Shown: in pieces, positions 61,501 through 64,000 of the stretch | How positions within the stretch are numbered: position 1 is the stretch's first letter | How the letters are laid out: each line of letters opens with the position of its first letter | Source of the DNA: Myxococcota bacterium | Lineage (GTDB): Bacteria > Myxococcota_A > Polyangia > Nannocystales > Nannocystaceae | Direction: 5' to 3' | DNA: 64,000 bases | Assembly: GCA_039028615.1 (NCBI GenBank) | Contig: JBCCHT010000044.1 | Span: forward strand, 37,815 to 101,814 | Position numbers: made by a program

Positions 61501-64000
61501 CCTTGCTGCGCGTGCGGCTGACGCCCGAGGGTAAGGTCTACAAGATCGACATCGTCAAAGGCAGCGGGGTGCGCGAGCTCGACAAAGAGGCCGTGTCCGC
61601 CGTGCAGCTCGGGGCACCGTTCGTGAACCCGCCCCCGCAGATGGTCGACCCGAAGACCGACCTCATCGAGATCATGTACATGTTCGAGCTGTACGAAGGG
61701 CGAGCATCGATCCACCGCTACGTCCGGTAGCGAGTCCGACCCCCGCTCGACGTTCGGAGAGTTGTCGTGTCGCGGCCTGCCACGACGAGATCGTCTTGGC
61801 TCATAAGTTGATTCAGTAGGATAAAAAGCGATTCGCATAGATATGAATATCGGATCCTGGAACAGGGACGATTGTTGGTGGTCGAGGGGCAAGTCGCTGG
61901 AAAATAAGCGGAATTGAGGATCGTTGCGGTCGCTGTCGTTCGTTGGTCCGTGTCCTGCTTCATCAGGGGGCATCGGGTTGGCTCAACGGTAGAGCGCGCC
62001 ATTGAAAAACATCCCCGCTTCGATGTTCTCCCGCGAGGGTAGTGAGAGACGGGGTTACTTCATCTGGGATGGCGAGGCAGCAGGTTCGACTCCTGCACCC
62101 GAGACCGAGCTCGCTCGAGGCAGTGAGGACCGCGGTTACTTCTTTCCGAAAAGCCAACACCGCGCCCATCGTTCTCCTCGAGCGAGCTCTTTTCTTCCTA
62201 CTCCCGCGCATCGCGGGTGAACGGACAGTGCATCATGGCTCTCTTCCACCGAAGCAAGCGACGCAAGAACCGCTCCGCCAAGACCCACCTCAACTGGATG
62301 GGCGGCACCTCCTACGCGATCACCGATCCCGTCATGCGCCTGCGGATGGCCGCGGCGTCGTGCTTCTTCGGTGAGCCCATGTACTACCACCGTGACGGCG
62401 CCGACCGTCGCCGCGGCCGACGATGTCCCTCGTTCCCCCTGAGCGATGCCGACGTGACGCGTCTGCGGCTGACGCTGGGCGCGATGGATCCCCAGGACTG
62501 GCGTGGCTTGTCGCCCGCCGAGCTGCTCGAGCGCACCATCGACGAGGCGCTGGCCCACGATGCGGAGGCGACCCTTCGCGAGGCCGCTCGGCTGCGCAAC
62601 GAGTCGCTGATTCGCACGACGCCCCAGGTCATCTTGGTGCGCGCGGCCAACCACGCGGCGGTCAAGGGCACGGGCCTGGTGCGCCGACTGGCGCCCGAGA
62701 TCATCCGACGGGCCGACGAGCCCTCGGTCGGCCTGGCGTATCAGCTCCATCGCTTCGGTAAGCCCATCCCCAACTCGCTGAAGAAGGCGTGGCGCGACGC
62801 GCTGCATCGCTTCGACGACTACTCGCTGGCCAAGTACCGCATGCAGGCGCGGGCCGAGAAGACGGTGGACGTGGTCAACCTCGTGCACCCCCGCAGCACG
62901 GCGGTCGATCGACTCGCCAAGGGCACGCTGAATAACGGCGACCGGACCTGGGAGTCGATCATCTCGGCTCGCGGGAGCACCCGCGAGGCGTGGGCCGATG
63001 CGCTGAAGGTGATGGGCCACATGGCTCAGCTCCGCAACCTGCGGAACCTGATGCAGGCGGGCGTGCCCGCCAAGCATGTGGTGGGCTCGCTGGTGGCGGG
63101 CGCCCGCAAGGGCAAGCAGCTTCCCTTCCGCTACTACAGCGCGTACCGAGCGATCGGCGAGGATGCGCCCGTGGTGCTCCGCGACGCGGTGGAGGACTGC
63201 CTGATGGCCTCGTTGGACAACTTGCCCTTCTTCCGCGGTCGTACGATGGCGCTGTGTGACAACAGCGGCTCGGCTCAGGGCTCGACCACGTCGGCCATGG
63301 GGACCATGAAGGTCTCGACCATCGCCAACCTCACCGCCGTGCTCGCGGGTCTACGATCCGACGAGGGCCACGTGGGGGTCTTTGGTGACCGACTGAAGAC
63401 GCTGCCCGTGCGCAAGCGAAGCTCCGTGTTCGACATGCTCGACTCGGCGGAGCGGGCGGCCGGGGACATCGGCATGGCGACCGAGAACGGCATCTGGCTG
63501 TTCTGGGATCGGGCGATCCGCAAGCGTGAGCACTGGGACCAGGTGTTCGTGTTCTCCGACATGCAGGCCGGCCACGGCGGCTTGTATGGCACCGATCCCC
63601 GGGCGTACCGCGAGTACGCGTGGGAGGGCCGCTCGCAGTACATCGACGTGCCCAAGCTCATCGCCAAGTATCGTGCGGAGGTCAATCCCGCCGTTCGGGT
63701 GTTCCTGGTCCAGGTGGCGGGCTACGGCGATACGTTGATGCCCGAGCACTACCACCGCACGTACATCCTCGGCGGCTGGGGCCCCGGCCTGCTGGGCTAC
63801 GCCGCCGAGATGGCTGCCTTCGAGCAGCAGGTGGCGTGAACGGGAGCGGCGGCTCGAAGTCGCGCCATCGTCGACGAGATGTCGTGGCGCGGCGCTCGTG
63901 CCGTCCGCGTAATCCACAACCGCCAGTTCATTTTGGAGCGGTTCCGGGTCAACGAAGCTCACCCCCTTCGCACCCAACTCCGTCATGGTTTCGTCGATAT

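Follow-up and report, generated by a model that had tools for sequence, protein, structure and literature searches.

A predicted unpermuted, tRNA-shaped Y-RNA-like element and its hairpin companion upstream of a divergent Ro60 gene in a myxobacterial genome

To our knowledge, the Y RNAs of bacteria are the sole partners known to fit Ro60 for RNA decay and repair, and no explanation exists for their mimicry of tRNA. The YrlA RNAs, as portrayed in the available parts of two sources (PMC4201824; bioRxiv 10.1101/312249), are circularly permuted tRNAs with a closed acceptor loop and with their ends in the Ro stem, and the same accounts give them neither an anticodon loop nor a free acceptor end. 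In the published picture they perhaps arose from a dimeric tRNA transcript, and few have been found in delta-proteobacteria; the only entry for So ce56 in supplementary file 4 of PMC4201824 is a YrlA next to sce5600, the other Ro gene of that strain. The YrlA of M. smegmatis is cleaved by RNase P and has CCA added to it according to part of PMC4201824, and in Salmonella the rsr-yrlBA-rtcBA operon is described as dependent on both sigma-54 and RtcR (PMC4987338, PMC7790460, in part). Other arrangements are the Yrn1 of Deinococcus radiodurans, reported to tether Ro60 (Rsr) to PNPase (Chen et al. 2013, 2014, in part), and the Ro60 of phage phiLo, which binds in vitro two RNAs encoded 5' of its gene (portions of PMC12135203).

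We have analysed a stretch of 64,000 nucleotides (the window) from a genome of the Nannocystaceae (Myxococcota), here called G000, in which two RNA modules lie in tandem before an rsr-type gene, Ro44 (Table 1). The start codon of rsr is found 130 nt beyond the end of module 1 on the same strand, within the 4-kb proximity to a Ro60 gene expected of YrlA. The flanking genes (TonB-like, TPR-kinase, DEAD-box helicase, DUF3179) differ among G000 and two relatives, G046 and G039, so that the conserved unit comprises only the promoter, the RNAs and rsr, and no rtcB, rtcA or activator gene was found beside it. We consider it probable (about 0.7) that the locus is a compact sigma-54-dependent unit formed by an enhancer site, a promoter, two Y RNAs and rsr, that is, a divergent Ro60 with two partner RNAs. 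The conserved sigma-54 promoter, the shared 13-mer and the exact co-occurrence of RNA and protein are new observations.

Table 1. Features of the Ro44 locus (positions within the window).
Feature	Position	Strand	Evidence or remark
Putative enhancer site	61826..61851	+	AAGCGAT-N4-ATAGATATGAATA, overlaps palindrome GATAT-GA-ATATC; ~107 nt 5' of promoter
Sigma-54-type promoter	61944..61959	+	TGGTCC-N5-CCTGCT, GG at -24, GC at -12
Module 1, tRNA-shaped Y-RNA-like RNA, unpermuted	61972..62104	+	Rfam tRNA model, covariation
Module 1 acceptor strands	5' 61972-61978; 3' 62097-62103	+	
Module 1 discriminator A	62104	+	
Module 1 D arm	61981-61995	+	
Module 1 anticodon-stem strands	5' 61997-62001; 3' 62070-62074	+	
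Module 1 inner helix H1, 5' strand	62013-62017	+	
Module 1 H1, 3' strand plus TTACTTC	62050-62061	+	CGGGGTTACTTC
Module 1 GTTCTCC	62025-62031	+	
Module 1 GCGA-loop cap	62032-62037	+	
Module 1 GGTAGTGAG	62038-62046	+	
Module 1 variable loop	62075-62079	+	
Module 1 T arm	62080-62096	+	
Module 2, YrlB-like hairpin	62107..62189	+	Fold energy, RNAalifold
Module 2 12-bp terminal stem	62107-62118 with 62178-62189	+	
Module 2 GGCAGTGAG	62119-62127	+	
Module 2 CGCGGTTACTTC	62131-62142	+	Spans H1 5' strand CGCGGT and TACTTC
Module 2 H1	CGCGGT 62131-62136 with ACCGCG 62159-62164	+	
Module 2 TACTTC	62137-62142	+	
Module 2 GTTCTCC	62171-62177	+	
U-rich tract TTTTCTTCC	62190..62198	+	3' of module 2 stem; terminator-like site in consensus scan
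Small GC hairpin CCCGCG-CAT-CGCGGG	62203..62217	+	Between module 2 and start codon; read from sequence
rsr-type gene 'Ro44', 534 aa	62235..63839	+	Pfam TROVE, Foldseek

Module 1 matches the Rfam tRNA model (RF00005) in cmscan with 46.2 bits (E 6.2e-08; gathering threshold 29) along the complete model (positions 1-71), a full cloverleaf in which 62 nt are inserted between the two strands of the anticodon stem, just as the first-pass annotation of this DNA had reported. The absence of a YrlA match, also claimed there, extends to YrlA and Y_RNA alike, neither of which gave a match in the region 60500-64000 even at E<=10. The fold energy is near the shuffled level (z = -0.54), so that module 1 is not exceptionally stable and its support comes from comparison, not from energy. 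In the 34 sequences of alignment A3, which was fitted to the model structure and thus favours pairing, and in which the counts are not independent since the sequences are related, 95.6% of cells are paired vs 41-51% with slid partners, and double-sided changes affect 19 of the 28 pairs (acceptor 7/7, T stem 3/5, H1 3/3, lower anticodon stem 3/3); the exact figures of a previous RNAalifold count (52 pairs, 12 compensatory) were not reproduced. None of 500 shuffles reached the observed pairing and covariation values. Within the acceptor stem 98% of these cells are paired, and a second, independent MAFFT alignment of 18 sequences gave the same percentage with 6/7 acceptor pairs doubly changed, which supports the earlier statement that the RNA has its ends in this stem. 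For H1 and the local anticodon strand, where the MAFFT alignment was faulty (61.7% paired), we have used anchored scripts and the model alignment. The tertiary 15:48 pair also covaries across relatives (G:C 53, A:U 21, other 8). The G000 copy is itself somewhat degenerate: the first pair of its acceptor is mismatched (A-G), and positions 15:48 are A:A. Module 1 thus has the T arm, D arm, acceptor-type stem and tertiary pairs of the tRNA-like domain of YrlA; its order is not the permuted one, as its ends pair into the acceptor stem and a GCGA loop caps the Ro-type helix. These sequence comparisons support its reading as a YrlA-type tRNA mimic in native strand order, the ends of which would close a 7-bp acceptor stem.

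The idea that a helix replaces the anticodon loop held in part. It applies to G000, G046 and G024, the only genomes in which the small anticodon-like hairpin is lost; the majority of relatives keep an anticodon-like hairpin of 7 nt, and next to it the Ro arm interrupts the anticodon stem within its 5' strand. A split anticodon stem with a 7-nt loop is present in 27/32 unpermuted and 23/45 permuted sequences, and slid controls gave 0-4 except for one slide (20/32), which is due to G-U pairing in the Sorangium sequences. A conserved anticodon such as a tRNA would have in its 7-nt loop was not found, the loop triplets varying among relatives. The published Ro-recognition motif GNCGAAN0-1G appears in neither module; the conserved word at that place is GGYAGUGAG. 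Its helix with GUUCUCC is invariant among relatives, for which reason covariation cannot confirm the pairing, and by analogy it is a candidate Ro site. Our own covariance model R1 scores 110 bits at module 1; because it also matches ordinary tRNAs at 45-66 bits, only matches of more than 105 nt were counted, and the other long match in the genome is a single weak one (130 nt, 35.4 bits) inside a tRNA cluster on C27.

The second hairpin that had been noticed after module 1 stands out by its energy (MFE -43.8 kcal/mol, z = -7.25; equalled in 0/200 shuffles). RNAalifold of 16 module 2 sequences predicted 13 stem pairs, 10 of them compensatory, H1 covaries, and in most relatives the module starts 1-3 nt past the discriminator of module 1. 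It carries the same putative Ro-type arm as module 1, with the bulged helix at the open end and without the tRNA part. The motifs that were said to be common to both modules in permuted order are indeed so placed, GTTCTCC coming first in module 1 and last in module 2. As a smaller adjoining hairpin with a putative Ro-binding module common to both RNAs, module 2 is a candidate YrlB-type RNA. A match to mir-1759 (29.1 bits vs 58 needed) was discarded as a chance long hairpin. The U tract, which may be a partial terminator of the intrinsic kind, is present in G000, G039 and G025, whereas G046, G024 and Sorangium lack it.

The gene that follows had been assigned to TROVE, and this was borne out (Pfam 40.2 bits vs a cut-off of 23). 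The nearest solved sequence to Ro44 is the Ro60 of Thermus phage phiLo (9KOP/9L5Y, E 6.8e-15). An AlphaFold2 model (pLDDT 71.4, pTM 0.72) retrieved Ro60 structures as all of its top 13 Foldseek matches (TM 0.50-0.62 by query). By this model, Ro44 combines a HEAT-repeat ring with a vWA domain and is a divergent paralogue of the Ro60/TROVE kind. Its start context CATCATGGC is conserved. The Ro44 sequences group as a single clade (support 99, stem length 3.35), and 17 of its 18 members come with the unpermuted RNA. The locus points to a second, deep clade of Ro60 that has a putative RNA recognition motif of its own.

Conservation in five other Nannocystaceae, each time directly before a Ro gene, had been proposed and was found again in 5/72 other family genomes, with 71-82% identity of the Ro gene directly 3'. 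Within the family the co-occurrence is exact, RNA and Ro44 being found in the same 6/73 genomes. That range is too narrow for the element as a whole: unpermuted RNAs also precede Ro44-clade genes in Sorangium (So ce56 included), other Polyangia, two Chloroflexota MAGs and one viral contig, where the copy sits among tRNAs. A locus search with a single protein gave only 5 loci and was replaced by motif and model searches. The motif scan, with one genome per species, identified 90 loci, at 79 of which a TROVE gene lies downstream on the same strand. At >=97 bits the unpermuted RNA was found at 32 loci, with a Ro44-type gene (55-81% identity) directly 3' in 31, the remaining one having no flanking sequence. 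Of 150 further genomes sampled from the phylum, six had long R1 matches (G192, G183, G139, G144, G222, G218). The modules form arrays of 1-3 per locus, 44-440 nt from rsr. The link of the RNA to Ro60, formerly drawn from position, is thus supported by position and by exact co-occurrence, from which we infer Ro binding.

The promoter was judged by GG and GC elements spaced as in TGGCAC-N5-TTGCW and by conservation of its position. In six family sequences the GG, the TGC and the spacing are invariant and the flanks diverge, and a sigma-54 motif lies within 70 nt 5' of module 1 in 27/32 matches. The -24 box of G000 (TGGTCC) is weaker, and a loose form of the motif occurs 11 times in the window vs 4.9 expected. 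The predicted transcription start lies near 61970, about 2 nt before the acceptor stem. The genome has both rpoN (contig 2) and an activator, RtcR, with a Sigma54_activat domain (contig 16). RtcR is present in all six Ro44 genomes, which is little informative given that it is common in the family (46/73 genomes). Public sequencing runs were of no help regarding expression of the RNAs: two wastewater metatranscriptomes contained any of the stretch (0.05 of the sampled words), and their contigs, one per run, cover only 62245-62330 at ~90-95% likeness, that is, the rsr coding region of a relative.

A possible hint at the regulation comes from an exact 13-mer with only two copies in the 12.27-Mb genome, one here and the other between rtcR and rsr on contig 16 (the reversed pattern does not occur in the genome). 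AAGCGAT flanks both copies, and a sigma-54-like promoter is found at a similar distance from each. A copy with one mismatch on contig 21, without a promoter-like site, was set aside as chance. Related palindromes exist upstream in relatives (AGATA-N6-TATCT, TATCC-N4-GGATA); that of Sorangium occurs only once in the So ce56 genome, which limits the observation of a shared enhancer to G000. On this sequence evidence, the Ro44 locus and the RtcR RNA-repair locus may be co-regulated in G000.

Contig 16 houses the other TROVE gene of G000. The YrlA that had been put forward there as a control is present at C16:126679-126810 (RF02553 61.3 bits, against a gathering score of 69). At both loci Y RNAs accompany the Ro60 gene, and each locus has a sigma-54-like promoter and a copy of the 13-mer. 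They differ in that rtcR, rtcB and rtcA adjoin only the contig 16 rsr, and in that its three RNAs (two hairpins and the YrlA) are located 3' of the gene and carry CGAAUGC...GAGACUAC motifs. Judged by their sequences, the loci seem to be two distinct Ro-RNA pairs that differ in their recognition motifs. A weak RF02553 match on contig 1 (31.9 bits) corresponds to two adjacent true tRNAs and is an artefact, of a kind also described for YrlA searches in part of Chen et al. 2014 (PMC4201824).

If the locus works as proposed, an enhancer-binding activator, for which RtcR is the best candidate, would switch the promoter on, and transcription would begin about 2 nt 5' of the acceptor stem. Processing of the tRNA 3' end just past the discriminator would free module 1 from module 2, which starts 2 nt further on, and the U tract would let only part of the transcripts reach rsr. 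In module 1 the D and T arms would form a tRNA elbow, and a protein-binding arm, composed of H1, the conserved UUACUUC/ACA junction and the bulged GUUCUCC/GGYAGUGAG helix, would project from the anticodon stem. Ro44 would bind the conserved bulged helix of each RNA, and the tRNA-like domain could bring in a tRNA-recognising partner, comparable to the known Y RNAs that tether Ro60 to PNPase.

Both modules lie downstream of the only conserved promoter and ahead of the rsr start codon, so that formally they are the 5' leader of rsr and could act in cis without ever being released, for example as a Ro44-binding autoregulatory operator or as an attenuator of rsr translation or of read-through at the U tract. 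The 45 nt past module 2 show no evident promoter of rsr's own, a sigma-70-like site was not found in 61500-62400, and some species have the terminator-like tract, all of which would suit a leader. However, a leader could do without a complete tRNA mimic that has a covarying 7-bp acceptor, a conserved elbow and a 15:48 pair; the varying number of modules and of their distance to rsr, and the copy among tRNAs on a viral contig, also argue against it, and operon-embedded YrlA and YrlB are processed to stable RNAs (PMC4201824, in part). We therefore hold an exclusive cis role to be unlikely, although a cis role could coexist with the release of the RNAs.

The tRNA score well above threshold might also be taken to indicate a real or decaying tRNA with an insertion or an intron-like element, having module 2 as its terminator and rsr as an incidental neighbour, the more so as the 7-nt loop of relatives reads YU-NNN-RA (U at position 2 and a purine at 6 in 53/77 sequences) and the genome encodes several RtcB ligases. 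Yet ARAGORN calls no tRNA at module 1, the loop triplet varies from one orthologous locus to another, and the three genomes named above have lost the loop. Moreover, the supposed insert is the most conserved part, common to module 2 and to the permuted Ro-linked RNAs of other phyla, the presence of the RNA tracks Ro44 exactly, and module 2 keeps Ro-type motifs that a terminator would not need, which makes such a tRNA very improbable. We give hardly any credence to the view that the cloverleaf is only the place where two permuted YrlA units meet in tandem, read out of register. Real cases of this kind exist in Verrucomicrobiota and Rhodothermota (loci L062, L069, L074, L082, L097), recognisable by a T arm and acceptor hairpin 5' of the D arm and by an outer 'acceptor' with 3-5/7 pairs; in G000 and the myxobacterial loci, by contrast, a promoter and not a T arm lies 5' of the acceptor strand, the outer acceptor has 6-7/7 pairs and covaries, and the YrlA model has no match at module 1.

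A wider interpretation of the sigma-54-dependent unit can be offered only tentatively. Module 1 may be matured through the usual pathway of tRNAs, with 5' and 3' processing, CCA addition and elbow modifications, which would leave the Y RNA with an acceptor end that is free and of tRNA type, and its form may be the ancestral YrlA-type state, a tRNA that gained a Ro-binding arm in the anticodon stem. If ancestral, permuted YrlA would derive from tandem arrays by a shift of register and not from an ordinary dimeric tRNA transcript. That both of these hold, and that one RtcR switches on two Ro-RNA particles, appears doubtful to us as a joint proposal; a corollary, if true, would be that RtcR activates in one cell two particles with different recognition motifs. 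The native-order form would fill the delta-proteobacterial YrlA gap, its Ro module is shared with permuted forms elsewhere, and tandem arrays do occur. The direction of permutation becomes testable, with a bearing on the rise of Y RNAs from tRNA. It also predicts a Y RNA open to maturation by tRNA-processing enzymes, and cultivable carriers exist, such as Sorangium cellulosum So ce56, Nannocystis radixulma and Paraliomyxa miuraensis.

Module 2 resembles YrlB, Yrn2 and the Yrl1 and Yrl2 of phiLo in being a smaller hairpin with a Ro-type module at its open end, in tandem with a larger RNA (as far as described in part of PMC12135203). The phiLo RNAs are also upstream of their Ro60 gene, which encodes the nearest solved relative of Ro44. 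Unlike these, module 2 has no CGAA motif; binding by phiLo Ro60 was seen in vitro, and binding of module 2 by Ro44 is predicted. In full-text searches, with one supplementary file of PMC4201824 outside the scope, we have found no description of an unpermuted Ro-linked tRNA mimic. YrlA shares with module 1 the vicinity of a Ro60 gene on the same strand, the T arm, D arm, acceptor-type stem and 15:48 pair, a protein-binding stem on the anticodon side and a smaller adjoining partner RNA, and the sigma-54/RtcR control of the Salmonella locus has its counterpart in the sigma-54-type promoter here. The differences are that in module 1 the ends are held by an open acceptor stem and the Ro arm is a closed hairpin, that its relatives mostly keep a 7-nt anticodon-like loop, that GGYAGUGAG takes the place of GNCGAAN0-1G, that the RNAs lie upstream of rsr instead of downstream and that the partner belongs to a separate Ro60 clade. 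The YrlA of M. smegmatis also acquires an open acceptor, in the partial account available by cutting of the permuted precursor into two pieces; in module 1 the gene itself already encodes it, and the RNA would remain in a single piece. The former claim that module 1 differs from both YrlA and Yrn1 therefore stands for YrlA and needs qualifying for Yrn1, whose tRNA-like elements come in the sequence D, anticodon, T, as in a tRNA, in our reading of the accessible part of Chen et al. 2014. On that reading, the Ro-binding stem of Yrn1 would be at the acceptor position, with an anticodon-like arm between the D and T elements, whereas module 1 has a true acceptor stem and carries its Ro arm on the anticodon stem. 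If so, module 1 represents a third arrangement.

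The 504 nt between the end of a TonB-like gene (61730) and the start of the Ro60-type gene (62235) hold four elements (see the table), and our overall account of the locus as predicted RNAs with a Ro partner has, we estimate, a probability of roughly 0.7. Module 1, the tRNA-like sequence, aligned with positions 1-71 of the Rfam tRNA model (46.2 bits) with 62 additional nt between the strands of the anticodon stem, the full match with an insert that the first-pass annotation had described. Neither module gave a YrlA or Y_RNA match in the Rfam scan, even at E <= 10, and ARAGORN called no tRNA at module 1. 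Module 2 folds much better than shuffled sequences (z -7.25), bearing out the second hairpin RNA proposed there, and module 1 does not (z -0.54), so the case for module 1 rests on comparison. The words GGYAGUGAG, GUUCUCC and SGGUUACUUC are common to both modules and, as had also been claimed, their order is circularly permuted between them. About 4.6 kb upstream, a miaA-type tRNA isopentenyltransferase gene (56385-57329) is part of a housekeeping run (mutL, miaA, accA); we have taken it as unrelated to the RNA-Ro unit, since this neighbourhood is not conserved among relatives.

Features of the two Ro loci, in window positions unless a contig is named
Feature	Coordinates	Position or remarks
AT-rich patch		within the 504-nt gap, upstream of the Ro60-type gene
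Promoter-like motif		within the 504-nt gap, upstream of module 1
Module 1, tRNA-like sequence	61972-62104	133 nt
Module 2, hairpin	62107-62189	83 nt; begins 2 nt past module 1
Small GC hairpin CCCGCG-CAT-CGCGGG	62203-62217	between module 2 and the rsr start codon
Contig 16 RNA-repair locus	C16:126650-132815	locus L157, 2150-8316

In a model-based alignment of 34 module 1 sequences, 95.6% of the cells are standard pairs, against 41-51% when the partners are slid by 1-3 columns, and none of 500 shuffles reached the observed pairing values. Double-sided changes appeared at 19 of the 28 pairs: all seven of the acceptor stem, which supports the claim that the RNA would have its ends there, three of five in the T stem, and all three in both H1 (the inner helix of the Ro arm) and the lower anticodon stem. 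The D stem is almost invariant, with a single double change at one of its four pairs. This alignment was fitted to the structure; in a cross-count on 18 sequences simply aligned with MAFFT, the acceptor stem kept double changes at 6/7 pairs, with 98% pairing. The Levitt tertiary pair also covaries (G15:C48 53 times, A15:U48 21 times, other combinations 8 times), which argues for a predicted tRNA-like domain with a genuine L-shaped fold. The helix between GUUCUCC and GGYAGUGAG can be read as three sets of two pairs, with a bulged C after the first set and a bulged U after the second. It is nearly invariant, so covariation speaks neither for nor against it; the invariance of both strands would fit a putative sequence-specific protein site.

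The position of the Ro arm was examined with anchored scripts. For most sequences of both topologies (see below), the five nt preceding the variable loop divide their pairing: the outer 2-3 nt have partners directly 3' of the D arm, and the inner 3 nt pair with a local strand located at the end of GGUUACUUC, enclosing a 7-nt loop whose second position is U and whose sixth is a purine in 53/77. Both parts were found in 27/32 unpermuted sequences (21 of the 32, from Sorangium and kin, share one word, so that the independent support is about 12 different words) and in 23/45 permuted ones, and slid controls gave 0-4, bar one slide at 20/32 owing to Sorangium G-U pairing. This two-part pairing indicates that, as predicted from sequence, the Ro arm is inserted into the 5' strand of the anticodon stem (5 bp), forming a three-way junction with the cloverleaf still complete. 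Because the triplets of the anticodon-like loop vary among orthologous loci, the predicted loop is a mimic rather than a decoding anticodon. The earlier statement that the Ro helix replaces the anticodon loop holds for the source genome and two family relatives (G046, G024), where the long-range part has expanded to 5 bp and no local hairpin is left, and does not hold for most relatives, which keep the local 7-nt hairpin. The underlying observation is confirmed, being correct in every checkable point, and its interpretation is supported and extended.

A scan for AGTGAG-N2-6-GGTTMCTTC-N8-30-GGTTCRANTCC, with one genome per species, yielded 90 loci. A TROVE gene lies downstream on the same strand at 79 of them, and the motif therefore marks Ro-linked RNAs; nine of the 11 loci without a TROVE match have 776 nt or less of downstream sequence, and two (L027, L046) have none despite 2500 nt each. 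Two topologies were found. In Verrucomicrobiota and Bacteroidota the T arm and acceptor hairpin precede the D arm, the known permuted YrlA order (33-47 bits with the YrlA model RF02553, under its threshold), whereas in Myxococcota the D arm is upstream and a 7-bp acceptor stem is formed by pairing of the outer segments. Carriers of the unpermuted form include every Sorangium genome matched (So ce56 and So0157-2 among them), Polyangiales MAGs, Nannocystis radixulma and Paraliomyxa miuraensis, together with two Chloroflexota MAGs and a few unclassified MAGs. Among the 90 loci, a covariance model of this form (R1) matched 34 at E <= 1e-13, with scores of at least 97 bits for 32; a gene of the divergent Ro60/TROVE clade that we call Ro44 (55-81% identity) lies directly 3' of the RNA in 31 of these 32, and at the remaining one the flanking sequence is absent. 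Within the family of the source genome, RNA and Ro44 occur in the same 6 of 73 genomes (3 of 17 genera), in agreement with the reported conservation in five other Nannocystaceae, and a sample of 150 other genomes from across the phylum gave long R1 matches in 6. Viral contigs carry copies as well: an 11-kb IMG/VR contig (L156) has an unpermuted module 1 amid ordinary tRNA genes (421-546, minus strand, 108.6 bits), and a 395-kb viral contig (L154) encodes a Ro44-type protein (2556-4112, 61% identity) with T-arm-bearing RNAs upstream. These copies and the patchy spread across phyla suggest that the RNA-protein pair moved horizontally.

The product of ORF 62235-63839 passes Pfam TROVE, and among proteins of solved structure the one closest to it is Thermus phage phiLo Ro60 (E 6.8e-15). 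When its AlphaFold2 model, made with 14 orthologues (pLDDT 71.4, pTM 0.72), was searched with Foldseek, the 13 best matches were all Ro60 structures (phiLo, D. radiodurans Rsr, Xenopus, human). A tree made by a quick method from 39 Ro proteins of the motif-scan loci, with its root placed on the long branch of contig 16, unites the Ro44 orthologues in a single clade (SH-aLRT 99) whose stem is very long (length 3.35), apart from the Verrucomicrobiota/Bacteroidota proteins and from the contig 16 paralogue of the source genome. The unpermuted RNA is present for 17 of the 18 clade members; the exception, Deinococcus xinjiangensis, has a permuted RNA and then a module 2 hairpin.

The terminal stem of module 2 covaries (13 pairs, 10 compensatory, 16 sequences), as does its H1. 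It starts 1-3 nt past the module 1 discriminator in 9/16 loci and 8-38 nt past it in the other seven, where the pair count halted at a bulge; among the loci compared it is missing at some (L079, L099). Tandem arrays exist for both topologies. At L124 (G183:C35, 1248-1635) one promoter precedes three RNAs, unpermuted (1a), hairpin (2) and unpermuted (1b), with a Ro44-type gene about 440 nt beyond; at L052 (Anaerolinea MAG) and L088 (Aggregatilineales MAG), which lack a sigma-54 motif, a Ro44-type gene follows a mixture of modules: an unpermuted one, others that are permuted or consist of a T arm only, and a plain hairpin. Since a tandem copy of either topology holds the other mid-array and such arrays exist, interconversion by duplication, in either direction, is plausible. 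A second locus of Sorangium sp. So ce1128 (L031, 11.33 Mb) repeats promoter, module 1 and module 2, with a Ro44 match spanning residues 1-150 only (55% identity), and may be a decaying duplicate. In Verrucomicrobiota (L023, 2914-4997; L028, 126-2296 and 4584-4737; L035, 171-2169 and 4203-4352), 10-20 tandem tRNA-like genes, several with GGUGCGA or GGCGCAA instead of the usual GGUUCGA T loop, stand directly upstream of a YrlA-like RNA and a Ro gene, an arrangement also seen in viral contig L155.

Upstream of module 1, a sigma-54-type motif (TGG-N9-YTGCW spacing) is the sole block conserved in the family alignment. By regular expression it lies within 70 nt of the RNA 5' end in 27 of the 32 strong matches, L125 with its motif at -62 among them; the misses within that distance include L088 and L052 (Chloroflexota), the second tandem copy in L124, and L016 (G024, GGGCAC). 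Transcription is predicted to start 2-9 nt ahead of the acceptor stem in most loci, near 61970 in the source genome, which has rpoN. The loose motif is frequent in the 64-kb window (11 observed, 4.9 expected), so a lone match means little and the conserved position is the evidence. About 107 nt upstream of the promoter motif, within the palindrome GATAT-GA-ATATC, is the 13-mer ATAGATATGAATA, which occurs exactly twice in the 12.27-Mb genome (reversed control, 0). Its second copy, preceded like the first by AAGCGAT, is in the rtcR-rsr interval on contig 16, and about 112 nt upstream of another sigma-54-like motif. From this 13-mer common to the two Ro loci, an observation in one genome, we infer that they may share an enhancer-binding activator, for which RtcR is the obvious candidate; RtcR occurs in 46/73 family genomes, too common to be informative. 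The upstream palindrome of Sorangium is unique within So ce56.

The contig 16 locus, with the YrlA-like RNA attributed to it earlier, was recovered by search and is a canonical RNA-repair locus, in which rtcR, rsr (a sigma-54-like motif about 66 nt before its start codon), two small YrlB-like hairpins and YrlA share a strand in that order and rtcB and rtcA diverge from them. Its RNAs each bear CGAAUGC...GAGACUAC and a U tract, whereas those of contig 44 bear GGYAGUGAG...GGUUACUUC, a difference that suggests two Ro-RNA pairs with separate putative recognition in one cell. Of the six RtcB-family matches in the genome, spread over five contigs (C4, C16, C8, C28, C25), only that of C16 adjoins a Ro gene. 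A weak YrlA match elsewhere (C1:247419-247527, L003) was rejected, as it joins the T arm of one true tRNA to the D arm of the next, a known false-positive type.

Most YrlAs resemble circularly permuted tRNAs, and a model cited by Wang et al. (2018, bioRxiv 10.1101/312249) derives them from dimeric tRNA transcripts. Chen et al. (2014, PMC4201824) report relatively few from delta-proteobacteria, and their table has for So ce56 only an RNA beside the other Ro gene. Since our full-text literature search, of incomplete coverage, found no description of an unpermuted Ro-linked form, and since module 1 departs from RF02553 in three defining features (model score, permuted topology and CGAA motif), we file it as a putative variant of the YrlA-type Y RNA in an apparently undescribed form. 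By analogy, it would work as a YrlA-type Y RNA. Y RNAs tether Ro60 to PNPase (PMC4201824; 10.1101/312249), YrlA is modified by TruB and DusA, and that of M. smegmatis is cleaved by RNase P and has CCA added (PMC4201824); the phiLo Ro60 binds two RNAs whose genes lie upstream of its own and assembles with the host PNPase (PMC12135203).
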